Part shown: positions 3,132-64,000 of the stretch, piece after piece
Layout of the letters: the number at the start of each line of letters is the position of its first letter
Position numbering within the stretch: position 1 is the first letter of the stretch
IMG/VR virus record: IMGVR_UViG_2912464834_000002
From: a virus
Taxonomy: Duplodnaviria; Caudoviricetes
DNA: 64,000 nucleotides
Reading direction: 5' to 3' (one strand)
Translations under genes and position numbers: made by a program
Notes under the pieces: model-generated
Database searches by the model: none
What the model saw: the letters and a program-made list of their open reading frames with translations, nothing else
What the model was told of the DNA's origin: nothing

Positions 3132-4207
3132 TGCTTGGCTCCTTCGAGAAGGGCGAGCAACACTCGGGCATGGCCGTCTAGCCGGCGTTCCTCCATCGTT
3201 TCGGCTGCAAACTTAATTACCGCGCGCTGGTTATGCGTCAGCCCCTGCCGAGTGGCGACCTGCGCGGGCGGGGCGGTGTAGAGCGCAACACGCGTCTTGC
3301 GAGGTTCGCGATACAGCACGACTTGGCATTGCTGCGAATATGTTCGCAGCGCTTCAAGATCGCGAGGCAGGATATGTGCCACCGCCTCTTGCCCCGCTGC
3401 CGCTGCGGGTTGAGATGCTGCCGCGCGGGCTTGCCATGCAGCCGAGGCTGCATACTGCGGCGTTACTTCTAGCCACCAGCGCGTGCTTTTTAATGCAGAC
3501 CAGACACTGAACGCAGTCTGCTCGTCTGCCGGCGCTGCCGCTGCATCTGCGGAGGGAGTGCGGCCTGCGAGAACCTTGCGTGCAGCTTCGCGCGCAGCGA
3601 CGCGCCGAGAGGCGGCCATCGTTCGTTCGATAGGGTCGATGTCGTTGGGGTCTTCGGTATCCGTCACGATGCGCCACGTTTCTTCCGCGTCGAGGTATTC
3701 GCGCAGCGCTTCCGTAGCCCCTGCGATCTCGAACTGCGCCGGCTCGTCCGCCACTTGCGGTTCATGCTGCTGCGTGCGCTTGCATTCCGATGCGGCATAC
3801 TGCTTCGCGCACGGTTCTACGCGATCGTCAGGATGGCAGGTGCACGGCTTATCGTCCGCCGGCACCGCTCCCGCCACCTCAATGCGAGGGGCTCGTCCTT
3901 TCATCCACTCGCAGGCGGCAAGCCACGCTTTCTCGGTGATCGCATCGTTCCAGAACCCCGATGTTTTGAACCACTGTCGGAACGCCGCCCGCTCATCCGC
4001 CCGATTGCCCGTGCCTTCGAGCGGGGCGGAGGGTTCAGCCTGCGAGCACTTCAATATCGCCATGATCTGCGCGTCGCGATCTGCTATATCGAACGAATTG
4101 ATGTCAAGCAACCGAGCCAGTCGGTGCCCGTGCTCTGCCACGAAGCGGGCCTCCACCTCGGCCAGCGCTGCTTCGTGCTGCTCGACAGGGGATGCGGCGT
4201 TATCCAT
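3128..4207 (-). CDS. Mosaic early (Ead/Ea22-like) phage protein
   Basis: Contains AWQARAA and ALYTAPPAQ modules typical of these mosaic genes; start placed at MDNAAS. Confidence 0.55.
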   Translation of the reverse strand: MDNAASPVEQHEAALAEVEARFVAEHGHRLARLLDINSFDIADRDAQIMAILKCSQAEPSAPLEGTGNRADERAAFRQWFKTSGFWNDAITEKAWLAACEWMKGRAPRIEVAGAVPADDKPCTCHPDDRVEPCAKQYAASECKRTQQHEPQVADEPAQFEIAGATEALREYLDAEETWRIVTDTEDPNDIDPIERTMAASRRVAAREAARKVLAGRTPSADAAAAPADEQTAFSVWSALKSTRWWLEVTPQYAASAAWQARAAASQPAAAAGQEAVAHILPRDLEALRTYSQQCQVVLYREPRKTRVALYTAPPAQVATRQGLTHNQRAVIKFAAETMEERRLDGHARVLLALLEGAKQ

Positions 4208-4967
4208 GATTCGCTCCTTCAAGATCTTTCTCGGCCAGTTCGCAGAAGATTCCGCACTGGATCGACAATTCGTTTTGATAGTCGCCGACATCCGGCGGCA
4301 ATTCGTCGAGAAACACGCGCTCCTCTCCGACCTTCACCAGCTTTACGCCCAGGCGCCGACTTAGCTTCGCCATGCGATCGAATTGAGGGGGGAAGTCGAC
4401 GCGAACCTTGTTCCAGTAGCCGGCTCCGCCCTTGACACATCCGATGCAGTTGTTGTGCAAGTAACCGAGCTTGTACATCGTCGGGATCTCGATTCCGGCT
4501 CGGTCGATGATCGCAAGGCAGTCGTCGTGCGTTATGCCTTTTTCGACCAGAATCGGCCAAATCAGAACGTCATTGTTGCCGTCGATGAACTGGTCGACTC
4601 GGCCTTGTTCCTCGGCTGAGTATCCGAACACGTGCATGTCCCCATGGCGCTGGAATGCCTCTCGGACGTGCTTCTTCAAAGCACGCGTGCAAGCTGCACC
4701 ACGCACGCCGGCGATGTATTTCTCTCTCTCGAAAACGGTATAGATCGACGACCCGAACTTTTCGCTTTTCAGCCGCGTGATCGGAACGCCGAACCAGCGT
4801 TCGCAATCGGCGGCGAAGCGCGCGTTGTCCGGGTGCTCTTCATCGATGCCACATTGGGCGACGATCAACGGCAGATTTTTGCTCCTCGCGTTCTCGGCGA
4901 TCGCCAATTTCGTCGCGACAGCGGACGCAGCCCCGGCCGAAAACCAACAGACGATTCGCTCAGGCAC
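4200..4967 (-). CDS. PP-loop / PAPS-reductase-like protein
   Basis: VCWFSAGAASAVA PP-loop-like motif, HNNCIGCVK and CGIFCE Cys motifs. Confidence 0.7.
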   Translation of the reverse strand: MPERIVCWFSAGAASAVATKLAIAENARSKNLPLIVAQCGIDEEHPDNARFAADCERWFGVPITRLKSEKFGSSIYTVFEREKYIAGVRGAACTRALKKHVREAFQRHGDMHVFGYSAEEQGRVDQFIDGNNDVLIWPILVEKGITHDDCLAIIDRAGIEIPTMYKLGYLHNNCIGCVKGGAGYWNKVRVDFPPQFDRMAKLSRRLGVKLVKVGEERVFLDELPPDVGDYQNELSIQCGIFCELAEKDLEGANHG

Positions 4968-5030
4968 GGTTCGCCTCCAGGTCCGTCAGCGCATCAGCGC
5001 GGCTATTGTCGGTGGTCTTCATGGTGGTCC

Positions 5031-5786
5031 TCAGGTGGTCAGCGCGAAATCGGCCTGAATGCCCGCATGCTCCCGGACCCAGAACGTCGGCGATTGGTGG
5101 GATTCGATGCGCTCGCGCAATATGAGCGCGCGAGCATCCTTGGTCGGCGGCGTATAGGTGCCGCGCCATTTGCTATCGATGCCGATGTTCTGGCCGATGT
5201 TCGTACTGTCAGCGCTCGCAAACGGGAAGCGCGTGAACACGTCTGGATTGAGCATGCGCAGGCCGTGGATCTTGCAGATCGGGCGACCATGCTTATCGCA
5301 CAGCACGTCCATTGCTTCCGCCATGCGTTGATACCAGGCAGATGTGCCGACGGTCGCATACTCGCCAGAGCTGCCGAGGCATACGCGCGGCCATACGAAC
5401 GCGAGTCGTTCGAGTCGTTCGAGACTTTCATGAAGGTGCCAGACCGGGGCGCCGACCCAAGGTGCCGCTTCACGCCACGGCCATTCCGCGAGCAATGCGT
5501 CGTTCGCATGTTCGTCGCCATCGATCACGTCGGGAATAACGGCAAAATCGAAGGATGGGTAGCGATTCAGTTCCCCGACCCACGCGTAATATGGCTTCCA
5601 GTCTGTGACCGGCGCACCACTGCGCCATGCCGAGAACGCGCCGTTATCGACCGCGAACGTCTGGGCTACTTCGAGCGCTAGGCCGAGTTGTTCGGGATGC
5701 TGAAACGACACGAAGGCGTGACCACCTGAAAGCGCGCGTGCGGCGGCCGTAGATGGCGTGATCGGCGTGCCGTGGTAATGGATCAT
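5031..5786 (-). CDS. tRNA-guanine transglycosylase (TGT/DpdA)-like protein
   Basis: VDNGAFS, IPDVI, PVWH, KIHGLRM and ASADSTN motifs resemble the TGT barrel; recognised by eye. Confidence 0.6.
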   Translation of the reverse strand: MIHYHGTPITPSTAAARALSGGHAFVSFQHPEQLGLALEVAQTFAVDNGAFSAWRSGAPVTDWKPYYAWVGELNRYPSFDFAVIPDVIDGDEHANDALLAEWPWREAAPWVGAPVWHLHESLERLERLAFVWPRVCLGSSGEYATVGTSAWYQRMAEAMDVLCDKHGRPICKIHGLRMLNPDVFTRFPFASADSTNIGQNIGIDSKWRGTYTPPTKDARALILRERIESHQSPTFWVREHAGIQADFALTT

Positions 5787-6136
5787 CGCGATACCGCCCG
5801 GATGGCATGAATCGCCTCGACGCCTTTCTCATAGACGGTGCTTCCGATCTGCACTCGTTCGATCAGGCGTCCGCACGGTGCAGGATCGAAACCGCGGCGC
5901 GTCTCGATGTCAACGCCGTGATGATGGGCTTTCAGGATCTGCCGGCCGCCGAAGCGCTTGAAAAGGTCGTCTGCAATCGCCTCGTGATAGCCGCTCTCGT
6001 GCATGGCAGTGGCCGTTGTGATGTGCTCGACGTGGATCATTTCGTCCGTATCGATCTCTAGGACGTAGGAGATCAGCTGCCGATTATTCGGGCATCGGCT
6101 CACGAAATGAGTTCGGTAGATGTTACTCATCGTCAT
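5783..6136 (-). CDS. QueF-like tunnelling-fold protein
   Basis: FVSRCP...HVE...GYHEAIADDL...HHGVDI lines up with the QueF CP/E/HE/GG-I pattern. Confidence 0.55.
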   Translation of the reverse strand: MTMSNIYRTHFVSRCPNNRQLISYVLEIDTDEMIHVEHITTATAMHESGYHEAIADDLFKRFGGRQILKAHHHGVDIETRRGFDPAPCGRLIERVQIGSTVYEKGVEAIHAIRAVSR

Positions 6137-6211
6137 CCTCAATCAGTAGAACAGCCGCATCGGTTGGGCGCTCGGCTCGCATCAGGCGGCGTCAGCGGGA
6201 ATAAAACGGAT

Positions 6212-6601
6212 TTAATGGACGGATATGTCCGGGACGATCACAGATGGTTTGAACACCACTTTGTAGTGGTATGTGCTCGCCGGCGCGGGATCGAGTTGCT
6301 CGATGAAGTACGTCACGTTATTGGACAGGCCGAGGAAGTGCTTTTTGTAGCTGTTCGGGCCGGTCTTGCAAATGATCGCGAGCTTGGTATCGGTGCTCGA
6401 GTTGTCCTTCGAGCACAGACCTTCAATAGTCAGCATGTATTCACCGGTGAAGCCGTTATAAAAAACAATTCGGCGATTGATCTGGAAGTTGTCAGCGGCA
6501 GTCGACAGGTTCTGCGAAGCGACATCGGCATCGTTGGTGCAGGCTCCGAGCAGGGACGTGAAAGCGATTGCAGCGGAAAAGAGAAGACGCGAGAGTGTCA
6601 T
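6212..6601 (-). CDS. Phage lipoprotein
   Basis: Signal peptide with lipobox LLGA-C; ADNFQINRRIVFYNG. Confidence 0.75.
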   Translation of the reverse strand: MTLSRLLFSAAIAFTSLLGACTNDADVASQNLSTAADNFQINRRIVFYNGFTGEYMLTIEGLCSKDNSSTDTKLAIICKTGPNSYKKHFLGLSNNVTYFIEQLDPAPASTYHYKVVFKPSVIVPDISVH

Positions 6602-6618
6602 GGTGGTCAGTCCTCAAA

Positions 6619-7764
6619 TCAGAAGGTCTTGGTGAGATCGCGGTCAACCGCTTTGCCGAGAGATCGAATAAGGTTCGCGAGGTAGACGCGGTCCTGGTGG
6701 CTGGCGGTCGCTTGGCGAAGCAGGCCGAAATACGAATTTGCTACCGGCATCAGGTCAGCGCATGGCGTTTCGGCGACGCGGCGCAATGCCTCATTCCGCG
6801 TGCGCTTCCGCGTCTCGCGACGCCATGGCTTGATGACCTGGCCGACGAAGTCGACGCCGCGGTCGATTGGCTGCAGGATCGTCTTGCGCGGGTTGATTCG
6901 CGCGCCGAGCCGGGCTGGCAGAAAGGTAGTGACGTCGGTGAGGATCTCGTTCAACCGGGTGGGTGATTCGTGCAGGAACACGAAATCGTCGACGTATCGG
7001 ATGTAGTGCCGTACGCCGAGCGCGTGCTTCGCTCGCTGGTCGAGTACGTCGAGATAGACGTTCGCGAAAAACTGGCTCGACAGGTTCCCGATCGGCAACC
7101 CGAGGTGCGGCGCCTGTTCGAGCAGTCTCTTATGGGGCGGAACGAGATCCATCATGGCCGGATCGCCGTGGTACACGTAGTCGGCCCGTGGATCGTGCAT
7201 CAGCACGGTTTCGGTCAGCGATCGCCAGAATGGCTCGGAGATCTTCGCGAGCAGCAGGTCGAGCAGAATTCCCTTGTCGATGCTGACGAAGAAGTTGGCG
7301 AGGTCGCACTTCAGGTAAAACGCGCGCCGCGACCAGTTCTGCGTGATCGATCGCACTTTCGCTTCGAGGCGCTGCGCGGCGTACAGCGTGCCACGCCCTT
7401 TGATGCAGGCGCACGAATCGGCGACGAATGACCTTTCGAAGCGCGGTCCGATCCGGTTGTAAAGCAGGTGATGCACAATGCGATCGCGAAAAGCCGCCGC
7501 CCATACTTCGCGCGGCTTCGGTCGCGTGATAACGAAGCACTTCGAGCGGCCGGGCGTGTAGCTGCCGTCGACCAGCTCGTCGTACAGGCGGCGCAGGTTC
7601 CGTTCGAGCCGCATCTCGAACGCAAGCGCCGCATTGCTGTTTCGCTTCGTTCGCCGGCAGTCGAGATACGCTTCGACCAGCTCGGCGAACGAAAATGGCC
7701 CTCGATCTGCGGACGGCGCGGGCGCGCAACTCGTTGTTCTGGTGGTTGTTGTTCTGGTTGCCAT
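6619..7764 (-). CDS. DGR reverse transcriptase (copy 1)
   Basis: FRDRIVHH, LKCDLANFF, GLPIGNLSSQFFAN (DGR-type SQ) and YVDD; start uncertain, nearest ATG lies inside the TR. Confidence 0.93.
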   Translation of the reverse strand: MATRTTTTRTTSCAPAPSADRGPFSFAELVEAYLDCRRTKRNSNAALAFEMRLERNLRRLYDELVDGSYTPGRSKCFVITRPKPREVWAAAFRDRIVHHLLYNRIGPRFERSFVADSCACIKGRGTLYAAQRLEAKVRSITQNWSRRAFYLKCDLANFFVSIDKGILLDLLLAKISEPFWRSLTETVLMHDPRADYVYHGDPAMMDLVPPHKRLLEQAPHLGLPIGNLSSQFFANVYLDVLDQRAKHALGVRHYIRYVDDFVFLHESPTRLNEILTDVTTFLPARLGARINPRKTILQPIDRGVDFVGQVIKPWRRETRKRTRNEALRRVAETPCADLMPVANSYFGLLRQATASHQDRVYLANLIRSLGKAVDRDLTKTF

Positions 7765-7795
7765 TGTTGAAGTTCTGGTACCACGCCCAGCCGGA
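7705..7795 (-). repeat. DGR template repeat TR1
   Basis: 91 nt, AAC-rich (reads SGWAWYQNFNNGNQNNNHQNNELRARAVRR in the VR frame); homologous to 5 VRs. Confidence 0.95.
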
Positions 7796-7957
7796 GGTAT
7801 CGTGCGATCTACGTCGCCCGACCGATTTCTCAGTCGGAAAACTGCGCTGGACCTTTCCGCACGCCGGCGGCCGGTTTCCTTATTGCGCATGGCGGTGGCT
7901 TTGTGAGCCAGCGGCACGACCAGATTGATATATCGCTCAGCCGCGAAGGCCTTAACC

Positions 7958-8314
7958 TTAGCGGAGCGGGCGACGGTTTGCGGCGTTCTTCCAGCCGGTG
8001 GCCTGCTTCCCGATGCTCGTCGTCTTCTCGACGGCAGCTGCGTAGCCGTCACGTGCGATCAGGCGCTTGTCCATGCTGAGCCGAAGCAGCAGCTCGATCA
8101 CCTGCAGGCGCTCGAGCAATTCGACGAGGTGGGGTGCCTTGTCGGCCGCGACGTTCGCGCGAAACACCAACACCATGATCTCGATGCACTCCGCGCTGAT
8201 CTTCTCGCCGATGCTGCGCTTGAAGTCGCGGGGCATGTTCTTGACCAGGTTGGTAACGTCATCGAGCAACCCGTAGGCCGTTCGATATATCGGGAGTTGG
8301 TTGTGCAGGGCCAC
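7958..8314 (-). CDS. avd: DGR accessory variability determinant (four-helix bundle), copy 1
   Basis: 118 aa, LPIY...MPRDFKRSIGEKI...IGKQATGWK; lies between the targets and the TR. Confidence 0.88.
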   Translation of the reverse strand: MALHNQLPIYRTAYGLLDDVTNLVKNMPRDFKRSIGEKISAECIEIMVLVFRANVAADKAPHLVELLERLQVIELLLRLSMDKRLIARDGYAAAVEKTTSIGKQATGWKNAANRRPLR

Positions 8315-8328
8315 GGTGGGTTAAATGA

Positions 8329-8793
8329 TCAAAAAACTGAAGGGATAAATCTGCGGACGGCTCGGGCGCGCAACTCGTCGTACTGGCGGCTGCCGTACTG
8401 GTGGCCATCGCCGAAGTACTGGTACCACGCCCAGCCGGAATTCGATTCATGGCGCTCACCGGACCAGTAATAGGCCGGCTCGAATTCACCCTTCAGGTTG
8501 GCGAATAGGAGAGATTGCTCCCGCCGCGTCGGCAGTTCGCCGCCACGTTCGGCGGCCCACGCCTTCGCCGCCTCCCAGTCCAGATCTTCGGCCCCCCCCG
8601 GCAGGAGAATCAGGTAGTGGCTCAACGAGCCATCTTCGAGAAGGATCGGCCCGGCGATGCGCTCGCCGGCCGCGAGCGGGATCGTGACGGCGTCGACGTG
8701 ATACTCGGTCGCGCGCGGCTGCTTCTTGAACTCGTCGATCATCGCGCCGATGCGCGCGTGATCTGCTTCGATCTGTTCGAGCGTGATCGTCAT
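8329..8793 (-). CDS. DGR target A1 (DUF1566/CLec-like)
   Basis: W..AKAWA...GGELPTRRE...YWS...AW...ARAVRR; C-terminal VR. Confidence 0.9.
   Translation of the reverse strand: MTITLEQIEADHARIGAMIDEFKKQPRATEYHVDAVTIPLAAGERIAGPILLEDGSLSHYLILLPGGAEDLDWEAAKAWAAERGGELPTRREQSLLFANLKGEFEPAYYWSGERHESNSGWAWYQYFGDGHQYGSRQYDELRARAVRRFIPSVF
8349..8439 (-). repeat. Variable repeat VR1a
   Basis: 12 mismatches to TR2, all at TR adenines. Confidence 0.95.
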
Positions 8794-8823
8794 TGCAAGC
8801 TCCGATTGTGAATGGATGAAGGG

Positions 8824-9186
8824 TTAAATCGACAATCTGCGGACGGCCCGGGCGCGCAACTCGTTGCCCTGGTGGTAGCCGTCCTGGTAGCCACCGTTGA
8901 AGTGCTGGCACCACGCCCAGCCGGCGAAATCCGGGTCATCGTCCGGCGTGTTCGACCAGTACGCAGCCTTCTCGAACAGGTCGCGGTGCTGCTCGTATGC
9001 GATCACGAGCTCGGCGCGCGTCGGCAGGTCGCCGCCAATCGACTTCGCCCATTCCATCTGCTCCTGCCATGTGGCGCGGCCGTTGTCACCCGGTAAGAGA
9101 TAGGTGTGTGTGACGTCGCCGTTCTTATCGACGAAGCCACCGAGATAGACCTCGCCTTCAGCGGCCGGGGGAATTTGGATTTGCAT
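8824..9186 (-). CDS. DGR target B1 (DUF1566/CLec-like)
   Basis: GGDLPTRAE...YWS...AW...ARAVRRLSI; C-terminal VR. Confidence 0.9.
   Translation of the reverse strand: MQIQIPPAAEGEVYLGGFVDKNGDVTHTYLLPGDNGRATWQEQMEWAKSIGGDLPTRAELVIAYEQHRDLFEKAAYWSNTPDDDPDFAGWAWCQHFNGGYQDGYHQGNELRARAVRRLSI
8835..8924 (-). repeat. Variable repeat VR1b
   Basis: 12 mismatches to TR2, all at TR adenines. Confidence 0.95.
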
Positions 9187-9195
9187 GGGATCTCC

Positions 9196-9228
9196 AGAAA
9201 AGAAGCAGGCGCCACGAAGGACGCCCGC
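9196..9228 (-). terminator. Possible intrinsic terminator upstream of DGR1
   Basis: Minus strand GCGGGCG..CGCCTGC hairpin followed by TTCTTTT. Confidence 0.45.
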
Positions 9229-9376
9229 AAAGTGGTACTACCAAGAAGAGGGAACAGCGGTTATCAGTGCCGCACGACCTGAGTGCGCGCCGGGTGCTCG
9301 ATGCGCTCCTGCAGGGCGACATGAAGGCAGAGGAGCAGGATCAGGGCGGCGAACGCGCCGGCCCAGATTTTCAGGA

Positions 9377-9592
9377 TCACCATGTCAGGACCCCGGCGCG
9401 GAACGCGACGCAGAGAAACCAGACGCAGGCGACAGCGATTCCATTGCCGCCGGCCCAGAGGCTTCCCTTGATGACGTAGCCGTGGATCTCGCCACAGGCG
9501 CCGAGCAATTCGTTATCGCTCGCGCCGAGCAAAACAAGCGATCGCTTGTTTTTGTGAATTACAGGCTGCAGGCTGTTAGAGGCGAGTCGCAT
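9377..9592 (-). CDS. Small hypothetical membrane protein
   Basis: 71 aa with a hydrophobic C-terminus; coupled to its neighbours. Confidence 0.5.
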   Translation of the reverse strand: MRLASNSLQPVIHKNKRSLVLLGASDNELLGACGEIHGYVIKGSLWAGGNGIAVACVWFLCVAFRAGVLTW

Positions 9593-9924
9593 CAGAGGTT
9601 CTCCCCGCAGATTCGGATATGGGTCGGCGGATCGCGGGGGCGCTCGACGGACAGATAGCCGGCCTTCACGAGCGCGGTCTCAGCCACAATTCGGATGCTG
9701 GACTTTAGCGCATCTGCCGGGATCTCGCGAAGCACCAGCTGCAGCGCCTCGGCCATGTCGACGGCGGCGCTTGCAGTTCGGCAATCATCCGGACTGATGA
9801 AGCGAGCCGCGCCAGCTGCATCGACCGTCAGCAAGGAAAGCGTCGGCGCATGCGATGAAACGAGAATCTCTGGGTAGAGGGCATGCGGCTGCCACGGGCC
9901 GGGCGTGTGTTTGATCTGGTTCAT
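9592..9924 (-). CDS. Hypothetical phage protein (HTPGPW family)
   Basis: MNQIKHTPGPW...; homologous to 62305-62634. Confidence 0.7.
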   Translation of the reverse strand: MNQIKHTPGPWQPHALYPEILVSSHAPTLSLLTVDAAGAARFISPDDCRTASAAVDMAEALQLVLREIPADALKSSIRIVAETALVKAGYLSVERPRDPPTHIRICGENL

Positions 9925-9932
9925 GGGGGTGC

Positions 9933-10157
9933 TCACATGCAGCGCGCAAGCGCGCATTGGATCTCTGTCTGCGCCGCCTGGTCCTGATACTGGAAGTAGC
10001 CGACGATGAGGAGGTAGACGAAGCACACGCCGAGCGCGGCGAGAACGTTGCGTGCAGCATGTAACAGCGCGCGCGCAATGCGAAAGCCGCGGTTGCGGGG
10101 CTTCGCGGGTTTCCAGGTGATCAGCGACTCAGGCGCCGTATGATTCGTCGAATTCAT
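9933..10157 (-). CDS. Small membrane protein
   Basis: One TM segment; GAGG RBS upstream. Confidence 0.55.
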   Translation of the reverse strand: MNSTNHTAPESLITWKPAKPRNRGFRIARALLHAARNVLAALGVCFVYLLIVGYFQYQDQAAQTEIQCALARCM

Positions 10158-10347
10158 GGTCTTTCCTCGTTGGGGTCGATTCAGCAGCCGGCGTGCATGG
10201 ACCGGACGCCCGGCGCAATGAGATTTATTGCTAGGCGCCGGAGCTCGGCCGAGCCGGGGCACTCGCGGCGCAGCTCGAGCAGATCGCGTGCGGTTTGGCT
10301 CATGGCGTTCTTGGTGTGGTGTGATTGCCCGCCGTAGCGGGCGCGGC

Positions 10348-10605
10348 TCATGCTGTGCCTCGGACGACATCAAGTCGCTTCACCATGGGGTGCATGTGGC
10401 CACCGGTCGAAAGCGCAATGCGCAACCTGCGAACACAGGGAACGTTAAGTCGTTCCTCGTTCCATCGCCCGTGGTGCCATTCCTTGCGCGACTCGACAAC
10501 GCCGCTGAAAACGTGCGCGTTGCCACCCTTGCGACCGATCCAGCAAACGACCGTGCCAACCTTCGGCATTGCGCGATATTCCTTGCGGCGTTGACGTGCG
10601 TTCAT
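10348..10605 (-). CDS. Hypothetical protein
   Basis: MNARQRRKEYR...; AGGGG RBS upstream. Confidence 0.55.
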   Translation of the reverse strand: MNARQRRKEYRAMPKVGTVVCWIGRKGGNAHVFSGVVESRKEWHHGRWNEERLNVPCVRRLRIALSTGGHMHPMVKRLDVVRGTA

Positions 10606-10631
10606 CGTCGTTCCCCTTCGTGTTGCGTTGG

Positions 10632-10739
10632 TCAGTGGCGCTGCCGGCGAGTCGGCGCCTTCCTGAGATCGAAGGCGGCGACGAGCAGAAGCGCTGCGGC
10701 GAAAATCCCCAGGCCGAAGCCGATAAGCAGGTTGATCAC
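10632..10739 (-). CDS. 35-aa single-TM peptide (not in the ORF track)
   Basis: (M)INLLIGFGLGIFAAALLLVAAFDLRKAPTRRQRH, GGAG upstream. Confidence 0.5.
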   Translation of the reverse strand: MINLLIGFGLGIFAAALLLVAAFDLRKAPTRRQRH

Positions 10740-10942
10740 AGATTCGTACTCCGAAATTAATTGGTGACTGAACCGTTTCCCGCTTCCTGACTGCGCTCAA
10801 GGAATGGCACTGTCACAATGCCATTCGATCAGAGCAGTCGAACTCTCAAGGGCGCGCACTCGGGGTGCTGCATGCTGCGCTGCTCGGTTGATGGATGCGG
10901 AGGATCCGCGGCCGAATGCGCGCTCTTGAGAGCATTGTTTTA

Positions 10943-11019
10943 CGTCCCCGTCCGGCTACACCTGGCAGAGCCAGCTCCGGACCGGGGACGGTGCGACGGG
11001 TTACCACGCCACTCGTCGC
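10943..11019 (-). ncRNA. Conserved two-hairpin RNA in the pL leader
   Basis: Same architecture as 63734-63812, with compensatory stem changes and identical loop sequence. Confidence 0.7.
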
Positions 11020-11131
11020 CGGGCGCCGCATTGCGGTAGCAGCTCATCAGGCCGCCATTTCTCGCGCTTTTACATTCAGCCGCACGAGGCCAAGGGCTGG
11101 GTGCTGGTGCACCTATTCATCTGCCGTCAGG

Positions 11132-11178
11132 GTTACAGAGCGATCCGCCGTGGCGGTGGCGCAGCGATCTGCGCTGCG
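11132..11178 (-). promoter_or_regulatory. nut-like antitermination site (hairpins + boxA)
   Basis: Minus strand CGCTCTGTAAC (boxA-like) preceded by two hairpins; conserved at 63941-63990. Confidence 0.6.
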
Positions 11179-11186
11179 TTGATGGA

Positions 11187-11224
11187 ACAATAGCAAACGC
11201 TTTCGATGAACGCAAGCAAATGCT
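11187..11224 (-). promoter_or_regulatory. pL promoter with two oL operators
   Basis: TTGCGT-17-TATTGT on the minus strand; AGCA-NN-TGCT-like sites at 11192 and 11215. Confidence 0.75.
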
Positions 11225-11327
11225 ATCGGAACATGGCAAAAAAATTCAGCGGGCGAGGCCGCTGCTATTACATATGATGAAAAGCCTGCGCTGGCAGGCC
11301 GGTGGAGATCGGATTTGGAGTAGTTAT

Positions 11328-12116
11328 TCAGTCTTCGATGGCTGAGCCTCGCGGCATGATCGCGGCGACGCGGTGTATCGACCGAACGGTGCCCATGGAG
11401 CGCGTGATCGGGGGGATGCCATTGTTGATTGAGCCAAGGCATACTTCGCCGTCTCGGATCCAGAGCAACTCTTTGACGACAGCGCTTCCGTCCGTGAATT
11501 TGACAACAACGTCGTCGCCCGGAAGGGCCTCGGCATTTGGCTCAACGACGATATATTCGCCGCTCTTAATGCGCGGCCGCATGCTATCGCCGCGCACCTT
11601 CAGCCCATAGGCTTCCGAGTCACGTAGACGCACTTCCGGCAGCATCGCGCAGCCGTGACCGACTGGATAATCATCAATATTGATATATCCATCGGGTCCT
11701 CCTTGAACTTCGCCGACCACAACGACGCCCCTCCCAGGTCTCAGCCTCAATTCTTCGCCAACGTTTGACTCAAGCATTTTGTCGATGCTAGGCCGAGAAC
11801 CGGGCGGCAAATTGCTGATGAGGTCGCCACTTTGCCCGATTCTCTGGTCTTCAGTGGCCGCATAAATGTGCTTTGGAGATGCGTCTTTCGGTGAAAACCC
11901 GATGTCGAAATACAACTCTTGAAGAGAGAGCTCGGCCTCGAGCCGCCTTGCTGCCTTCCAGCCAAAGCTTTTCCCTTCACGGTAGTTTTCGTTGAGCAAC
12001 TGCCTCAGGCGCGTCGCGTCTTGATTGTGGTTACGGGCAAAGGCGGCAACATTGCCGTCGGTTTCTTTGTCCACGAGCGCTTGTAGGCGATTTCGTCGAT
12101 GGGCGTCTATGTCCAT
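11328..12116 (-). CDS. CI-like repressor (HTH + S24 peptidase)
   Basis: N-terminal HTH; VRGDSM catalytic Ser and VKEL Lys; divergent from cro. Confidence 0.9.
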   Translation of the reverse strand: MDIDAHRRNRLQALVDKETDGNVAAFARNHNQDATRLRQLLNENYREGKSFGWKAARRLEAELSLQELYFDIGFSPKDASPKHIYAATEDQRIGQSGDLISNLPPGSRPSIDKMLESNVGEELRLRPGRGVVVVGEVQGGPDGYINIDDYPVGHGCAMLPEVRLRDSEAYGLKVRGDSMRPRIKSGEYIVVEPNAEALPGDDVVVKFTDGSAVVKELLWIRDGEVCLGSINNGIPPITRSMGTVRSIHRVAAIMPRGSAIED

Positions 12117-12138
12117 GGCGGAATTAAACCTCAAAACT

Positions 12139-12213
12139 AGCATTTGCTGTGATAGCAAAAGATTGCGGAGTCGCGTGCATTTGCTTGCGTTTAGCGAGAG
12201 CATTTGCTATCGT
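12139..12213 (+). promoter_or_regulatory. oR operators and pR promoter
   Basis: AGCATTTGCT at 12139 and 12199, TGCATTTGCT at 12176; TTGCGT-17-TATCGT. Confidence 0.75.
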
Positions 12214-12219
12214 CTGTGC

Positions 12220-12537
12220 ATGGACGCCTTTCACACCTACCTCAAAGCCCTGACCAAGGATCAGCGAGTCGAACTCGCTGAGAAGGTCGACACGACAGTC
12301 GCCTATCTCTGGCAAATCGCGTACGGACAGCGTCGCTGCCGGGAAGGGCTTGCGATCGAGATCGAGAAGGCGACATCGCGCGCCGTTCGCCTCGAAACGC
12401 TGCGACCCGACATTGACTGGGCATACGTTAGAAGTTCTGCGCAGTCGATTGCCGAGAGCGACTCGAACCGCCCCGCTGCGGATTCTACAGATGACGTTCA
12501 GCCTCCGACCGGCGGTCGCGTTGGGATGGGTGAGTAA
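12220..12537 (+). CDS. Cro-like (YdaS family) regulator
   Basis: LAEKVDTTVAYLWQIAYG...IEKAT...LRPDIDW. Confidence 0.85.
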   Translation: MDAFHTYLKALTKDQRVELAEKVDTTVAYLWQIAYGQRRCREGLAIEIEKATSRAVRLETLRPDIDWAYVRSSAQSIAESDSNRPAADSTDDVQPPTGGRVGMGE

Positions 12538-12639
12538 AGGCATGTGTGGCTCTCGGAGGCGTTGTGTTGAAAAAATTTTCGCGCCGTCCTGAGTCGTAAT
12601 TCCAGTAGTAATCCGGTTGTTTTTTTCAATGGAGTCTGA

Positions 12640-13014
12640 ATGCTCTTACAGCCTCACCACCAGCCTGCAAGCGGCGCCCGTGCGGAGCAGGCTGAGTTTG
12701 TGCCGCATGAATCGATCGCGGAATGTCGTTCCTTCCGTGATGCCGTGTGTCTCGCGTGGGACCAGCGGGCCGAGCGCGGCATGACGCAAAGAACGCTTGC
12801 CGAAAACCTCGAGATCCCGGCCTCGCACCTTTCCAACATGCTCAACCGCGAGCCGGTTGACCGTCACGGGAAGGCGCGGCAGGACCTTCCGGCCCGGCTG
12901 ATCGCGGACTTTGAACGGGTCGTCGGAAATCGTGCCGTGTCGCAGTACCTCGCGCGGATGGCGATGCTGACGTTGATGGAGGAAGTAATCCAGCAGAGGG
13001 CGACTATGAAATGA
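12640..13014 (+). CDS. CII-like HTH regulator
   Basis: MTQRTLAENLEIPASHLSNML; lies after cro. Confidence 0.65.
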   Translation: MLLQPHHQPASGARAEQAEFVPHESIAECRSFRDAVCLAWDQRAERGMTQRTLAENLEIPASHLSNMLNREPVDRHGKARQDLPARLIADFERVVGNRAVSQYLARMAMLTLMEEVIQQRATMK

Positions 13015-13199
13015 ATGAGGATCAGGCGCTTCGGATTGGCCGCAAGGCTGTAGAGGATGCCCGGAAACGGGTTGGTAATGACCGAAACGCACTGCTACAG
13101 GAGTTGGAGAAAGGCACAAAAAAGAACACGGAGACGATGCAGGCGTTTGCGATAGCAGGACGCCTGTTTCTTCAGGCAAGTCAGGCAACGAAGCAGTAA
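13011..13199 (+). CDS. Hypothetical protein
   Basis: 62 aa, ATGA overlap. Confidence 0.55.
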   Translation: MNEDQALRIGRKAVEDARKRVGNDRNALLQELEKGTKKNTETMQAFAIAGRLFLQASQATKQ

Positions 13200-13308
13200 G
13201 GCACGCCGGCTTCGGCCGGCGTACTGAATCCGATCACAAGCGTTCGCGCACGAGCTCTTCTGATTCGATTTAGTAATCCTACGCGGTACAGGCCGCAGGG
13301 AGTTGCCA

Positions 13309-51457: not shown

Positions 51458-51534
51458 GGTGGCTGTAGCTCAGTTGGTAGAGTCCAGGATTGTGATTCCT
51501 GTCGTCGTGGGTTCGAGTCCCATCAGCCACCCCA
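51458..51534 (+). tRNA. tRNA-His (GTG)
   Basis: G-1, GTGGCTG/CAGCCAC acceptor stem, CAGGA-TTGTGAT-TCCTG anticodon arm, GTTCGA T-loop, CCA end. Confidence 0.97.
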
Positions 51535-51563
51535 AAGAATTCTGAGCAGTATCAAGCAGTTAG

Positions 51564-51602
51564 AAACGGCACTGAGATTTTATCCAGTGCCGTTTTTGTT
51601 TT
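51564..51602 (+). terminator. Terminator after tRNA-His
   Basis: AAACGGCACTG...CAGTGCCGTTTTTGTTTT. Confidence 0.75.
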
Positions 51603-51621
51603 GGAATTCCCAAATTGGGAA

Positions 51622-52647
51622 TTACATGCCTCTTCGCTTTACGATTTTCGTTCGATCGTAGACGCGCGCCGTCGTCGCCGGATTCGCATGCAAGTCCGGC
51701 AATGCGCCGCGTTCCGCCTTATGCCGCGTCACGTAATACGCGCGCAGGTCGTGGAACGTAAAGCGCCTCCCGATCTTCTTCAGCTCCAGGGCCTTGCTCA
51801 TCAGCTTCGACCATTCGGTCTTGAAGCCGGCCGGCGTGTAGTGCGTCGCGTATCGATTCGAGAACACGTATAGGCAGTCGTCCTTGCGAGCAGCGCGCAG
51901 GCGCGCGATCAGTTCGGTCAGAGCGGGCGTGATCTCGATATGCTCGATCACCTCGCCGCGTTTCTTGCCGCGCTGCTTCGCGCGCTTGACGCGGATCTCG
52001 CCGGCGGCTTCGTCGATCTGAGGCCACGCGAGATCGAGAAACTCGACCTTCCGGTTGCCCGCCAGCGCCGCATATTCGGCGGCCATGCCGATGACCGCCT
52101 TTTGTCCGCCGAGCGACGCTACCCAGGCGGCGAACGACTGGAAGTCTTCCGGTTCGGGTGCTTCGGTGCGCGGCTGCTCCTCGTTCCGACGAACCTCGCG
52201 ACAGGGGTTATGCTTGGCCTCGCCGCGGTCGATCGCCAGACCGATCAGGTTCGAAAGCAGCGCAACCTCGCGGTTGGCGCGCACCGGCGCGGCTGCGCGC
52301 TCGATGCGCAGATAGCGCGAGACGTGTGTCGCGTCGATGTCGGCGGCGCGCATGTCGCCGAACGTTTCCAGCAGCGGCCCGCTGCATTGCTTGTAGTCGT
52401 TGCGCGTGTACTGCGAGTAGCGCTGCCATCCGGGCGTCTCCTGGAACTGCTCCCATAGCCGCGCGATCGTGCCAACGTCGTCGCCGGCGCCGAGCAGGTC
52501 GAGCACCTTGCGTATTGCGACGAGCCGGTCCTGGCCGAGGTTGATCGGCTTCTTCCCGACCGGGTGATAGCGGTACGTGAAGCCTTCCTTCCGTTTCCGC
52601 GCCTCCATGCGCGGCAGGAGGCCATCACGTTCCCGGTGCTTCTTCAT
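51622..52647 (-). CDS. Tyrosine integrase
   Basis: AGNRKVE (R), FHDLRA, LH and RVYDR (Y); ATGA-coupled to the upstream gene. Confidence 0.9.
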   Translation of the reverse strand: MKKHRERDGLLPRMEARKRKEGFTYRYHPVGKKPINLGQDRLVAIRKVLDLLGAGDDVGTIARLWEQFQETPGWQRYSQYTRNDYKQCSGPLLETFGDMRAADIDATHVSRYLRIERAAAPVRANREVALLSNLIGLAIDRGEAKHNPCREVRRNEEQPRTEAPEPEDFQSFAAWVASLGGQKAVIGMAAEYAALAGNRKVEFLDLAWPQIDEAAGEIRVKRAKQRGKKRGEVIEHIEITPALTELIARLRAARKDDCLYVFSNRYATHYTPAGFKTEWSKLMSKALELKKIGRRFTFHDLRAYYVTRHKAERGALPDLHANPATTARVYDRTKIVKRRGM

Positions 52648-52850
52648 GCTGCGACTCTCCATTTCGGCTGCGCGCGCGGCGCGGCTTCGGCGCGCGGGCG
52701 GTTGACCTGCTCCCACGTCAGCATGGGATGCCCGTCAGCCTTTCGCGGCGCGTCGATGCCGAGTGCTTTCTTGATCCACCGGGCCTGCGCCGCACCCTGT
52801 TTCAGGCCGCCCGTCAGCTCGACGAGCTCGTCATTGGTCACGATTGGCAT
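52644..52850 (-). CDS. DUF4224-like excisionase
   Basis: DELVELTG...AQARW...GI...ADGHP. Confidence 0.75.
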   Translation of the reverse strand: MPIVTNDELVELTGGLKQGAAQARWIKKALGIDAPRKADGHPMLTWEQVNRPRAEAAPRAQPKWRVAA

Positions 52851-55023: not shown

Positions 55024-56169
55024 TCAGAAGGTTCTCGTGAGATCGCGATCGACGGCTTTACCCAGCGAACGCAGAAGGTTCGCGAGGCTCGCGCGATCGT
55101 GGTGGCTGGCGGTTGCCTGCCGCAGCAGGCCGAAATACGAATTCGCGACCGGCATCAGATCGCCGGCTGGTGTCTCGGCGACGCGCCGCAGGGCTTCGTT
55201 GCGCGTGCGTTTCCGCGTCTCGCGACGCCATGGCTTGATGACCTGACCGACGAAGTCGATGCCGCGGTCAATCGGCTGGAGGATGGTTTTGCGCGGGTTG
55301 ATCCGCGCGCCGAGCTGCGTGGGCAGGAACGCGGTGACGTCGGCGAGGATCGCGTTCAAGCGCGCCGGCGACTCGTGCAGGAACACGAAATCGTCGACGT
55401 ACCGGATGTAGTGCCGCGCGCGGAGCACATGCTTCGCGCGCTGATCGAGAACGTCGAGGTACACGTTCGCGAAGAACTGGCTCGACAGGTTGCCGATCGG
55501 AAGGCCAAGGTGCTCGGCTTGTTCCATCAGGCGCTTGTGCGGCGGCACGAGCTCGATCATTGCCGGGTCGCCGTGGTGTTCGAAGTCGGCCCGTGGATCG
55601 TGCATCAGCACGCGCTCGGTCAGCGCACGCCAAAACGGCTCGGAGATCTTCGCGAAGAGCAGGTCGAGCAGGATGCGCTTGTCGATGCTGACGAAGAAGT
55701 TCGCGAGATCGCACTTCAGGTAGAACGCGCGACGCGACCAGTTCTGCGTGATCGATCGCACCTTCGCTTCGAGGCGCTGCGCGGCGTATAGCGTGCCGCG
55801 GCCCTTGATGCAGGCGCATGAATCGGCGATGAAGGACCGCTCGAAGCTCGGGCCGATCCGGTTGTAAAGCAGGTGGTGCACGATGCGATCGCGAAATGCG
55901 GCCGCCCAGACTTCGCGCGGCTTCGGTCTCGTGATGACGAAGCATTTCGAGCGGCCGGGTGTGTAACTGCCTTCGGCCAGCTCGTCGTACAGGCGTCGCA
56001 GGTTGCGTTCGAGCCGCATTTCGAACGCGAGCGCTGCATTGCTGTTTCGCTTCGTTCGCCGGCAGTCGAGATACGCTTCGACCAGCTCGGCGAACGAAAA
56101 TGGCCCTCGATCTGCGGACGGCTCGGGCGCGCAACTCGTTGTTCTGGTGGTTGTTGTTCTGGTTGCCAT
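55024..56169 (-). CDS. DGR reverse transcriptase (copy 2)
   Basis: Same motifs as copy 1 (GNLSSQ, YVDD); start uncertain. Confidence 0.93.
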   Translation of the reverse strand: MATRTTTTRTTSCAPEPSADRGPFSFAELVEAYLDCRRTKRNSNAALAFEMRLERNLRRLYDELAEGSYTPGRSKCFVITRPKPREVWAAAFRDRIVHHLLYNRIGPSFERSFIADSCACIKGRGTLYAAQRLEAKVRSITQNWSRRAFYLKCDLANFFVSIDKRILLDLLFAKISEPFWRALTERVLMHDPRADFEHHGDPAMIELVPPHKRLMEQAEHLGLPIGNLSSQFFANVYLDVLDQRAKHVLRARHYIRYVDDFVFLHESPARLNAILADVTAFLPTQLGARINPRKTILQPIDRGIDFVGQVIKPWRRETRKRTRNEALRRVAETPAGDLMPVANSYFGLLRQATASHHDRASLANLLRSLGKAVDRDLTRTF

Positions 56170-56200
56170 TGTTGAAGTTCTGGTACCACGCCCAGCCGGA
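56110..56200 (-). repeat. DGR template repeat TR2
   Basis: Identical to TR1 except position 56123 (A on the TR strand, versus C at 7718). Confidence 0.95.
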
Positions 56201-56362
56201 GGTATCGTGCGATCTACGTCGCCCGACCGATTTCTCAGTCGGGAAACTGCGCTGGACCTTTCCGCACGCCGGCGGCCGGTTTCCTCATTGCGCATGGCGG
56301 TGGCTTTGTGAGCCAGCGGCACGGCCAGATTGATATATCGCTCAGCCGCGAAGGCCTTGACC

Positions 56363-56719
56363 TTAGCGGAGCGGGCGACGGTTTGCGGCGTTCTTCCAGC
56401 CTGTGGCCTGCTTCCCGATGCTCGTCGTCTTCTCGACGGCAGCTGCGTAGCCGTCACGTGAGATCAGGCGCTTGTCCATACTGAGACGAAGCAGCAGCTC
56501 GATCACCTGCAGACGCTCGAGCAATTCGACGAGGTGCGGAGCCTTGTCGGCCGCGACGTTCGCGCGGAACACCAACACCATGATCTCGATGCACTCCGCG
56601 TTGATCTTCTCGCCGATGCTGCGCTTGAAGTCGCGGGGCATGTTCTTGACCAAAGTGGTGACATCATCGAGCAGCCCATAGGCCGCTCGATATATCGGAA
56701 GTTGGTTGTGCAGGGCCAC
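56363..56719 (-). CDS. avd: DGR accessory variability determinant, copy 2
   Basis: 118 aa, four substitutions relative to copy 1. Confidence 0.88.
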   Translation of the reverse strand: MALHNQLPIYRAAYGLLDDVTTLVKNMPRDFKRSIGEKINAECIEIMVLVFRANVAADKAPHLVELLERLQVIELLLRLSMDKRLISRDGYAAAVEKTTSIGKQATGWKNAANRRPLR

Positions 56720-56733
56720 GGCGGGTTAAATAA

Positions 56734-57198
56734 TCAAAAAACTGAAGGGATAAATCTGCGGACGGCGCGGGCGCGCAACTCGCAGTTCTGGCGGGTGTTG
56801 CGCTGGGTGCCATGGCTGAAGTCCTGGTACCACGCCCAGCCGGAGTTCGATTCGTGGCGTTCACCGGACCAGTAATAGGTCGGCTCGAACTCGGCCTTCA
56901 GGTTCGCGAACAGGAGCGATTGCTCCCGCCGCGTCGGCAGTTCGCCGCCACGTTCGGCGGCCCACGTCTTCGCCGCCTCCCAATCCAGATCTTCGGCTTC
57001 CCCCGGCAGGAGAATCAGGTAGTGGCTCAACGAGCCGTCTTCGAGAAGGATCTGCCCGGCGATGCGCTCGCCGGCAGCGAGCGGGACCGTGACGGCGTCG
57101 ACGTAGTACTCGGTCGCCCGCGGTTGCTTCTTGAACTCGTCGATCATCGCGCCGATGCGCGCGTGATCTGCTTCAATCTGTTCGAGCGTGATCGTCAT
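56734..57198 (-). CDS. DGR target A2 (DUF1566/CLec-like)
   Basis: Close homolog of 8329-8793 with a different VR. Confidence 0.9.
   Translation of the reverse strand: MTITLEQIEADHARIGAMIDEFKKQPRATEYYVDAVTVPLAAGERIAGQILLEDGSLSHYLILLPGEAEDLDWEAAKTWAAERGGELPTRREQSLLFANLKAEFEPTYYWSGERHESNSGWAWYQDFSHGTQRNTRQNCELRARAVRRFIPSVF
56754..56844 (-). repeat. Variable repeat VR2a
   Basis: 11 mismatches to TR2, all at adenines. Confidence 0.95.
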
Positions 57199-57228
57199 TG
57201 CATGCTCCGATTGTGAATGGCTGAAGGG

Positions 57229-57591
57229 TTAAATCGACAATCTGCGGACGGCGCGGGCGCGCAACTCGCTGCTCTGGAGGTCGCCGTACTGGAAGCCATT
57301 GGCGAAGTACTGGGACCACGCCCAGCCGGCGAAATCCGGGTCATCGTCCGGCGTGTTCGACCAGTACGCAGCCTTCTCGAACAGGTCGCGGTGCTGCTCG
57401 TATGCGATCACGAGCTCGGCGCGCGTCGGCAGGTCTCCACCGCGGCTCTTGGCCCAGTCCATCTGTTCCTGCCACGTCCCGCGATCGTTCTCGCCGGGCA
57501 GCAGGATCGTGTGCGTGACGTCGCCATTCCTGTCGACGAAGCCGCCGAGGTAGACCTCGCCGTCGGCGAGCGTGGGAAGCTGGATCTGCAT
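57229..57591 (-). CDS. DGR target B2 (DUF1566/CLec-like)
   Basis: Homolog of 8824-9186; GGAG RBS before MQIQLPT. Confidence 0.9.
   Translation of the reverse strand: MQIQLPTLADGEVYLGGFVDRNGDVTHTILLPGENDRGTWQEQMDWAKSRGGDLPTRAELVIAYEQHRDLFEKAAYWSNTPDDDPDFAGWAWSQYFANGFQYGDLQSSELRARAVRRLSI
57240..57329 (-). repeat. Variable repeat VR2b
   Basis: 14 mismatches to TR2, all at adenines. Confidence 0.95.
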
Positions 57592-57600
57592 GGTTTCTCC

Positions 57601-57632
57601 GGAAAAGAGAAGGGCGCCGATTGGCGCCCTTC
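57601..57632 (-). terminator. Intrinsic terminator upstream of DGR2
   Basis: 10-bp stem GAAGGGCGCC/GGCGCCCTTC followed by TCTTTT on the minus strand. Confidence 0.65.
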
Positions 57633-63733: not shown

Positions 63734-63812
63734 CTCGCGCGCCCGGCTACTCCCGGCCGTGCCGGCTCCGGGCCGCGCGAGGTTGTGTGCCGATTACCAC
63801 GCCATCGGTCAC
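63734..63812 (-). ncRNA. Conserved two-hairpin RNA in the leftward leader
   Basis: Structural homolog of 10943-11019. Confidence 0.7.
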
Positions 63813-63938: not shown

Positions 63939-63990
63939 TTGTTAGAGAGCGATCCGCCTGGGCGGTGGCGCAGCGCGTTGTGTGCTGCGT
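63939..63990 (-). promoter_or_regulatory. nut-like site (hairpins + boxA)
   Basis: Minus strand CGCTCTCTAACAA after two hairpins; homolog of 11132-11178. Confidence 0.6.
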
Positions 63991-64000
63991 TGGGAAGGAC

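Follow-up and report, generated by a model that had tools for sequence, protein, structure and literature searches.

A diversity-generating retroelement with small, stand-alone lectin-fold targets in the leftward arm of two unrelated Burkholderia prophages

The window analyzed here is a stretch of 64,000 nt (IMG/VR record IMGVR_UViG_2912464834_000002; Caudoviricetes) that holds two temperate phages with unrelated backbones, prophage 1 and prophage 2, both from one Burkholderia chromosome (8.6-Mb genome), and each of these prophages carries a diversity-generating retroelement (DGR). In prophage 1 the complete element is a 2.6-kb module (6619-9228, minus strand) that is transcribed in the order terminator hairpin, target B, target A, avd, RT-15 RNA, template repeat (TR), and reverse transcriptase (RT), and a second copy occupies 55024-57632 (minus strand) in prophage 2, which has a third target, C, several kilobases away (Table 1). 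A 2.58-kb module is 89.8% identical between the two prophages (6619-9203 vs 55024-57608). This similarity has sharp borders at both ends of the cassette, indicating that the cassette is a mobile module. An earlier note made from the sequence without database searches had described a targetB-targetA-avd-TR-RT cassette with targets of 120 and 154 aa and its recurrence in prophage 2; we find the cassette where that note placed it, and the recurrence consists of the 89.8%-identical copy plus the third target.

Table 1. Features of the two DGR copies in the window (VR, variable repeat; TR1 and TR2, template repeats of prophages 1 and 2; ORF, open reading frame)
Feature	Position	Strand	Evidence
Prophage 1
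Terminator-like hairpin and T-run	9205-9228	-	Consensus scan; fold -16.6 kcal/mol, z -4.35
Target B1, 120 aa; VR 8835-8924	8824-9186	-	ORF; 12/12 mismatches to TR2 at adenines
Target A1, 154 aa; VR 8349-8438	8329-8793	-	ORF; 12/12 mismatches to TR2 at adenines
Avd accessory protein, 118 aa	7958-8314	-	Pfam bAvd PF22296
RT-15 RNA (RF03018), from avd 3' end to TR 5' edge	7793-7975	-	cmscan 165.3 bits, full-length model
TR1, 90-nt core, 26 adenines	7705-7794	-	Repeat family and codon view
DGR RT, probably 381 aa, YVDD, start uncertain	6619-7764	-	RVT_1 52 bits; PDB 8ub7 match
Prophage 2
Terminator-like hairpin upstream of B2	57609-57632	-	Fold -22.9 kcal/mol, z -5.0; alignment
Target B2, 120 aa; VR 57240-57329	57229-57591	-	14/14 mismatches to TR2 at adenines; alignment
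Target A2, 154 aa; VR 56754-56843	56734-57198	-	11/11 mismatches to TR2 at adenines; 90% identical to A1
Avd	56363-56719	-	ORF within the 89.8%-identical module
RT-15 RNA	56198-56380	-	cmscan 161.2 bits
TR2, 27 adenines	56110-56199	-	Repeat comparison
RT, intact	55024-56169	-	91% identical to prophage 1 RT
Remote target C, 126 aa; VR 63239-63328; head of leftward operon	63228-63608	-	13/13 mismatches to TR2 at adenines; Magia gp57 orthologue

The RVT_1 match of the RT exceeds the Pfam cut-off, both RT copies retain the YVDD motif and an open frame, and the best solved relative by sequence is chain A of PDB 8ub7, deposited as 'Reverse transcriptase' (E 5e-33). The RT frame of prophage 1 corresponds to an ORF at 6619-8052, of which the coding part is shorter. 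The conserved N-terminus of the protein (F.F.ELV.AY.DCRR) starts where the TR ends, and a single in-frame ATG precedes it, at position 7764 within the TR. Given this sole upstream ATG and the match to the annotated RT of Pseudomonas phage Cruim01, the most likely start is the ATG at 7764, and the RT probably is a protein of 381 aa whose gene overlaps the template. Avd matches the bAvd model with 49.3 bits (cut-off 40), and the RT-15 RNA between avd and TR scores well above the gathering score of 82 bits in both cassettes. An intact YxDD RT, an Avd beside the TR and RT, pairs of TR and variable repeat (VR) that differ at adenines only, and a VR at the C-terminus of a C-type-lectin fold place these elements among the DGRs.

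The window contains seven copies of an 18-nt core common to the VRs and TRs, two in TRs and five in VRs, compared with 0.04 copies expected by chance. Over 90 nt, the 62 mismatches of the five VRs to TR2 all fall at TR2 adenines, and the comparison reproduces exactly the hand counts given in the earlier note (12, 12, 11, 14, and 13). Six further VRs in two related phages, Magia of Burkholderia cenocepacia (MT701587) and vB_E192a, are also adenine-only. The variable codons of the TR are AAC (eight times), AAT, TAC, and CAC, none of which can mutate to a stop codon, and these 11 codons allow roughly 10^11-10^12 variants per protein; the 11 VR copies contain no stop codon. The VRs end 10-11 nt before the stop codons of the targets. 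At their 3' side, every VR and TR has the same GC-rich stretch, which closes with GTCCGCAGAT, and there the homology stops. A shared ATTTAACCC motif without a hairpin has been reported. A DNA search of the whole 8.6-Mb genome returned the two TRs and five VRs and no other copy, and a protein-profile search of the same genome returned the five targets and the two TR translations and nothing else. The observation that no VR lies in the tail fiber or other virion genes, made in the window at first, is therefore upheld genome-wide, and a VR hidden in a tail gene is ruled out by both searches.

TR1 and TR2 are one base apart, with C instead of A in TR1 at core position 76 (7719 vs 56124), where the codon reads CGC in TR1 and CGA in TR2. 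The VRs of prophage 1 read CGA and CGG at this codon. Adenine mutagenesis of TR1 is unable to give CGA or CGG and that of TR2 is able to. At the same codon, the A and B VRs of prophage 2 read CGC, like TR1, and Magia and vB_E192a have CGC throughout. Most simply, each of the two co-resident DGRs would act in trans on the targets of the other; as an alternative, TR1 may have been altered after its last homing event. A second regularity concerns three CAG codons and one GAG codon of the TR, the adenines of which are unchanged in all 11 VRs (44/44), with the other TR adenines being changed about half the time in the same 11 VRs. Selection for structural Gln and Glu residues, or an effect of sequence context on the RT, could explain this constancy.

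Orthologous targets of prophage 1, prophage 2, Magia, and vB_E192a were compared in 13 pairs. In every pair, none of the 63 VR sites opposite non-adenine TR bases differs, whereas 37-56% of the VR sites opposite TR adenines do, and 6-21% of the sites differ in the target gene outside the VR. That the non-adenine sites of the VRs stayed constant while the flanks drifted argues that the VRs were repeatedly overwritten from the template in each lineage, and this pattern of substitutions is indirect evidence that the DGR is active now or was so recently. The earlier note had set beforehand that a lack of adenine-specific VR variation among related strains would speak against its reading; such variation is what these strains display. 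Upstream of the VRs, the target scaffolds have dN/dS values of 0.08-0.26 (0.08-0.26 for A and 0.09-0.15 for B), compared with 0.07-0.09 for Avd, which indicates that they are under purifying selection.

The five targets in the window align over a core of ~115 residues, to which the A-type targets add 33 N-terminal residues. An AlphaFold2 model of target A, built with 143 relatives, has a mean pLDDT (predicted local distance difference test) of 96; in it, a lectin-like domain comes after a helix formed by residues 5-24, in line with the short N-terminal helical extension that the earlier note had described. In Foldseek, the top match of this model is the C-terminal domain of Legionella Lcl (8q4e_A; E 1.3e-4; template modeling score 0.57 by query and 0.66 by target), and the further matches include many C-type lectins; among viral proteins, the fold is matched best by small phage proteins labeled 'DUF1566' and by a few long ones of tail-fiber-like type. 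The Pfam model Lcl_C (formerly DUF1566, PF07603) gives A, B, and C 23.8, 26.8, and 21.4 bits, respectively, all below its gathering score of 34.9, and NCBI labels close homologues 'DUF1566 domain-containing protein'. Thus, of the proposal that the targets are stand-alone DUF1566/CLec-like domains, the fold is borne out and the Pfam assignment is not, and because of these scores the assignment to DUF1566/Lcl_C rests on the fold match to 8q4e. A simple hydropathy scan found no hydrophobic N-terminus, lipobox, or membrane-spanning stretch in the five targets, consistent with the lack of a signal peptide and transmembrane segment noticed at first. We found no effector or signaling domain on the targets and no conserved cysteines across the aligned sequences.

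An exhaustive profile search placed 2305 representatives in the target family at E 1e-3 and 953 at 1e-10. Nearly all of the best 149 representatives are 116-260 aa long with the domain at the C-terminus, and only about 3 of these 149 have a hydrophobic N-terminus or lipobox. The Atlas neighbors of the targets are likewise small proteins, mostly from viral contigs. The close homologues of target A fall into 1485 clusters at 90% identity, and most clusters contain one or few members, as expected of a hypervariable protein; all homologues with a named source come from Burkholderia or Paraburkholderia except one from an uncultured phage. Two fused forms were also observed. One is a 373-aa protein composed of an SNF2/DEAD-like N-terminal fragment and a C-terminal Lcl_C-like domain, encoded by a gene at 174-1295 of a 2.9-kb JGI metagenome contig (L069) directly upstream of Avd, and it would, if real, be an uncommon union of a DGR target with a cytoplasmic DNA enzyme; the other joins ParB_N to the target domain. 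These are single cases that could be artefacts of assembly, deletion, or gene calling, and we give them no weight.

Prophage 1 is a sheathed-tail phage with a lambda-type large terminase. Its CI/S24-type repressor is encoded at 11328-12203 on the minus strand, and the genes beyond it (regulator, ParB-like, and O-like replication genes) have the rightward orientation, starting at 12640. The cassette lies ~2 kb downstream of the repressor on the same strand and is followed, toward the left attachment site, by lipoprotein-like, DpdA-like, PAPS-reductase-like, and HNH genes. Prophage 2, which is Magia-like over most of its length, begins at a tRNA-His and an integrase (51459-52716), and its leftward arm consists of target C, a nuclease, RecT, an AAA ATPase, a helix-turn-helix regulator, the terminator, B, A, Avd, TR, RT, more genes, and the integrase. 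In both prophages, Magia, vB_E192a, and the Pseudomonas phages Cruim01, Haboob, and LPPA56, the cassette is located in the leftward arm, co-directional with and downstream of a CI-type repressor, and this arm runs from the repressor toward recombination genes and the integrase or attachment site. The three Pseudomonas phages have one TR and two VRs each, and their VRs lie at the 3' ends of small ORFs, most of which have weak Lcl_C matches.

The target family was detected in 24 of 401 Burkholderiaceae species genomes and in two of 400 genomes in a class-wide sample, one of the two being the present genome. From the Burkholderiaceae we fetched 20 loci with 10-kb flanks. The order target(s)-Avd-RT is found in 16 of these 20 loci, and wherever markers were detected, those on the upstream side are repressor, cro, or replication genes and those on the downstream side are methylase, Bet, or integrase genes. 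No homologues of terminase, portal, capsid, sheath, tape-measure, baseplate, fiber, or endolysin genes were found within 10 kb in the 20 loci. A remote target at the head of the arm, as in prophage 2, is also present in Cruim01 and in at least one Burkholderiaceae locus (L057), where it directly follows the repressor, and in two others (L055 and L066) remote targets lie upstream of recombination genes. Judged by gene position, the targets are not genes of the tail or virion modules. At E 1e-5, no structural protein of prophage 1 has a counterpart in Magia or Haboob. Haboob encodes a tail tube and a TipJ-family tail protein and has no sheath annotated, whereas prophage 1 has a tail sheath; tail type was judged here by PHROG matches and record annotation, as Pfam Phage_sheath_1 missed even the annotated sheath of Magia. 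That phages with no detectable virion protein in common, a myovirus and a siphovirus among them, carry the cassette speaks against a docking partner conserved on their virions.

Within the cassette, intervals of 14-30 nt separate the genes, and only 10-17 nt lie between the RT and the gene after it, a tight spacing that indicates that the cassette is embedded in a longer operon. A hairpin and T-run precede the start codon of target B by ~18 nt in all four phages (prophages 1 and 2, Magia, and vB_E192a). Its stem sequences differ among the four while its place is constant, and in Magia it is annotated as a terminator; in prophage 1, a GGAG ribosome-binding site stands between it and target B. 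As the interval from the hairpin to target B is too short to hold a promoter, we infer that A, B, Avd, TR, RT, and the later genes are transcribed through the hairpin, by either antitermination or leakage.

Two conserved islands are present on the minus strand at the head of the leftward arm, at 10949-11011 and 11132-11181 in prophage 1 and at 63740-63804 and 63941-63992 in prophage 2, and they are 75-85% identical between the two otherwise unrelated prophages. The first island is predicted to form a two-hairpin RNA (-44 and -45 kcal/mol, z about -3) with compensatory changes in the stems, which occurs once per prophage with no second copy in either. An Rfam search of the leader region gave chance-level matches only and no family. 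This RNA might be a leader or antitermination RNA, and a put-like antiterminator is one candidate. The annotated gp58 ORF of Magia, which may be spurious, overlaps this leader RNA.

Considering these data, we propose that the RT, Avd, and the RNA carrying RT-15 and the TR would make adenine-mutagenized cDNA, and that this cDNA would overwrite the last ~90 nt of two adjacent genes and, in prophage 2, also those of a third gene at the head of the operon. The targets would most likely be produced in infected or induced cells as free, diversified binders rather than serve as receptor-binding proteins of the tail. Transcripts from the immunity region would have to pass the terminator, such that A and B would be made only if termination is overridden or leaky, that is, as delayed-early products; target C would be made first and A and B later. 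The proteins would remain in the cytoplasm and act simply by binding. A cytoplasmic location is suggested by the absence of export signals, and early expression likewise by the sequence. We assign a probability of roughly 0.55 to a non-virion, conflict-type role for these free small lectin binders. A binding domain without an effector can block or mark its partner, and a diversified one suggests a partner that varies among hosts or competitors, which favors a role in conflict. The earlier note's anti-defense, host takeover, or inter-phage competition would be forms of such a role, and our best guess is that the targets bind and block, or sense, a variable host or rival-phage protein. A fuller scenario, which we offer tentatively and consider rather unlikely as a whole, is that temperate phages of Burkholderia and Pseudomonas keep a population-wide library of small intracellular lectin binders that neutralize or sense fast-evolving host defense or rival-phage proteins, with one binder made from the first leftward gene and others from behind a terminator, and, in the present strain, with the two co-resident prophage DGRs also acting on each other's targets in trans; this would be the first DGR with a function in counter-defense or inter-phage conflict instead of adsorption.

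Several points weigh against a free intracellular role for the targets. A receptor-binding role of the domain is well precedented through the same fold on long phage proteins, where it is C-terminal in, for example, a 594-aa peptidase-S74 protein and the 583-position PHROG 4245. The missing signal peptide is compatible with incorporation into virions, since tail proteins lack signal peptides too, and the hydropathy test is a crude one. The structural-marker search of the 20 loci used two reference virion sets, which divergent structural genes could escape. The earlier note had placed the cassette in an early arm driven by a pL promoter; the position in the leftward arm is confirmed but the promoter is not, as a terminator precedes the cassette and a sigma-70 scan of 6000-13200, which is weak in DNA of 60% GC, gave no plausible leftward promoter. 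A cassette that is normally silent would explain the terminator equally well. Finally, we found no paper on the expression, location, partners, or virion content of the targets, and the vB_E192a paper contains no virion proteomics.

The most serious of the alternatives, which we nevertheless regard as unlikely, is that the small lectins are accessory proteins of the virion that dock non-covalently on the fiber or baseplate and switch tropism in the manner of Bordetella phage BPP-1. The proteins diversified by phage DGRs that have been characterized are all receptor-binding or virion surface proteins (PMC8144416, PMC10743442), the fold of the targets caps long tail-fiber-like proteins, the helix-plus-lectin layout of target A resembles that of trimeric tetranectin, which is among its fold matches, and the authors of the Magia report proposed an effect on host range. 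The cassette, however, is in the early-left arm of every phage examined and never beside tail genes, and one target heads the leftward operon beside the immunity region. The module also moves among phages, sheathed and non-sheathed, that share no detectable virion protein, so that no common docking partner is apparent.

The location in the arm bears on a second alternative as well, namely that the targets are expressed from the prophage for the benefit of the lysogen, for example to exclude superinfecting phages by means of a diversified sensor or blocker inside the cell or in its envelope; they would then be a defense encoded by the prophage and would have no early lytic function. The integrase-repressor arm of temperate phages often houses exclusion and moron genes. 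The RT of prophage 1 is directly followed by a lipoprotein-like gene, the terminator shields the cassette against transcription that arrives from upstream, and cellular DGRs that diversify putative antigen sensors have been proposed (PMC10907252, PMC10053308). Such expression would be hard to reconcile with the ~18 nt between the terminator and the start of target B, which leave no space for a promoter of the cassette's own, or a sensor function with targets that have no effector or signaling domain. In addition, by analogy with lambdoid phages, target C lies right behind the leader and would normally be silenced by the CI-type repressor. We therefore place expression for the lysogen behind docking on the virion and think it improbable.

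Less probable still is an extracellular function after lysis, in which the proteins would bind glycans, debris, or neighboring cells and thereby mask receptors or aid attachment. Any soluble phage protein is freed by lysis, C-type-lectin folds often bind extracellular ligands, and among solved structures the nearest in fold is the C-terminal domain of Lcl, a Legionella adhesin, which binds glycosaminoglycans; but a position in the early operon would be odd for a product needed only at lysis, the targets have neither conserved cysteines nor an export signal, and the tail genes have no matching variability that would provide a link to the phage's own receptor. That the element is a selfish, hitch-hiking retroelement whose targets are useful only for keeping it is very improbable, for, mobile as the 2.6-kb module with its sharp borders is and patchy as its spread is (24/401 and 2/400 genomes), purifying selection on the scaffolds is as strong as on Avd and RT, none of the 11 VR copies has acquired a stop codon, and the layout with two or three targets is kept across phages of Burkholderia and Pseudomonas.

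Some neighboring genes and database records merit mention. The gene directly after the RT of prophage 1 (6212-6601, minus strand) encodes a 129-aa protein that has a lipoprotein-type N-terminus (LLGAC) and matches Pfam Phage_VG64 with 179 bits; the label of its family in PHROG 478, recombination directionality factor, seems doubtful for a lipoprotein, and one further Burkholderiaceae locus (L065) has a homologue after its RT. Farther downstream in the same operon, at 4200-5786 on the minus strand, lie PAPS-reductase-like and DpdA/queuine-tRNA-ribosyltransferase-like genes, which are candidates for 7-deazaguanine modification of DNA. Two GenBank records of exactly 47,902 bp each, OP650936.1 ('Hujiaoplasma phage zrk29-1', for which a Tenericutes host is given) and OK094664.1 ('Shewanella phage vB_Sb_QDWS'), contain a GC-rich cassette that is ~87% identical to the Burkholderia copies, and their host attributions look doubtful.

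The DGRs of phages that have been studied at the bench all change virion adhesion, whereas the tiny early-gene targets described here, which lack export signals and also occur in a sizable group of temperate Burkholderia and Pseudomonas phages, travel among phages with unrelated tails. If the targets are intracellular, DGRs would also be a tool for intracellular arms races, be it in counter-defense, exclusion, or sensing, and scaffolds of 120-154 aa would be naturally occurring binders that work inside the cell and can evolve. The cassette is also present in two phages in culture, Magia and vB_E192a, and the single TR base that distinguishes the two co-resident copies can be used to follow action in trans.

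Compared with the prototype DGR of BPP-1 (mtd-avd-TR-brt), the elements described here have in common a DGR-type RT, Avd, adenine-only TR/VR pairs, a VR that is C-terminal in a C-type-lectin fold, and AAC-rich codons that cannot become stops. Mtd of BPP-1 is a 381-aa trimeric protein of the tail-fiber tip encoded in the late structural region. The targets here are instead stand-alone proteins of 120-154 aa, two or three per element, encoded in the early-left arm and, unlike those of tropism-switching DGRs of the BPP-1 type, not in the tail or virion module. The spacer RNA that functions in BPP-1 is located on the 3' side of its TR, whereas here the RT-15 RNA is 5' of the TR and the start of the RT probably overlaps the TR.

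Targets with a DUF1566/CLec2 domain form category 'd' in the survey of Wu et al. 2018, in which about half are short domain-only proteins, such as LdtA of Legionella (PMC5758913). The present targets resemble this class in their weak DUF1566/Lcl_C match over the VR, their short domain-only build, and their fold, which is that of the Legionella Lcl C-terminus. LdtA, however, is a surface lipoprotein and the class has been discussed in terms of surface display, whereas the targets here have no lipobox, signal peptide, or membrane segment and are encoded in a phage early arm. The DGRs of cyanobacteria (PMC7517822) and multicellular bacteria (PMC10907252) are similar in that a diversified lectin fold is presumed to be intracellular and to act in conflict or signaling, but their targets are large chromosomal proteins that join the variable domain to a kinase, NTPase, or protease, and not stand-alone and phage-borne. 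Among viruses, Roux et al. 2021 separated structural from 'non-structural' DGR targets and did not characterize the latter.

Closer relatives are the elements of the Pseudomonas phages Cruim01, Haboob, and LPPA56, for which we found no published description as DGRs. Their RT has ~67% DNA identity to that of the present elements, and they have the same arrangement of two targets, Avd, RT-15 RNA/TR, and RT in the leftward arm; their targets are longer (162-220 aa) with other N-terminal extensions, and the hosts and virion types differ, the tail of Haboob being non-contractile. The closest described system is that of Magia, the announcement of which reports 'a potential DGR' whose targets and IMH (initiation of mutagenic homing) regions are located in two short genes, 47 and 57, and considers that it may serve adaptation or a change of host range (PMC7883833). 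In the GenBank record, gp47 and gp57 are labeled as lectin-fold potential targets, gp46 as hypothetical, gp44 as RT, and gp45 as Avd. The Magia cassette is orthologous, with ~90% nucleotide identity over 2.58 kb and the same order, terminator, remote third target, and position. Its gp46, not named as such in the record, is the orthologue of target A and also a DGR target. The announcement makes no comment on the early-operon position or the missing export signals. The novelty of the locus was thus overstated at first, since the Magia DGR with two short targets is on record and short DUF1566-only targets are a known class. What distinguishes the window from Magia is the second copy of the cassette in an unrelated prophage backbone on the same chromosome, and what our analysis adds to the known systems is the presence of two co-resident, distinguishable copies, a conserved terminator before the cassette, and evidence of homing across strains.

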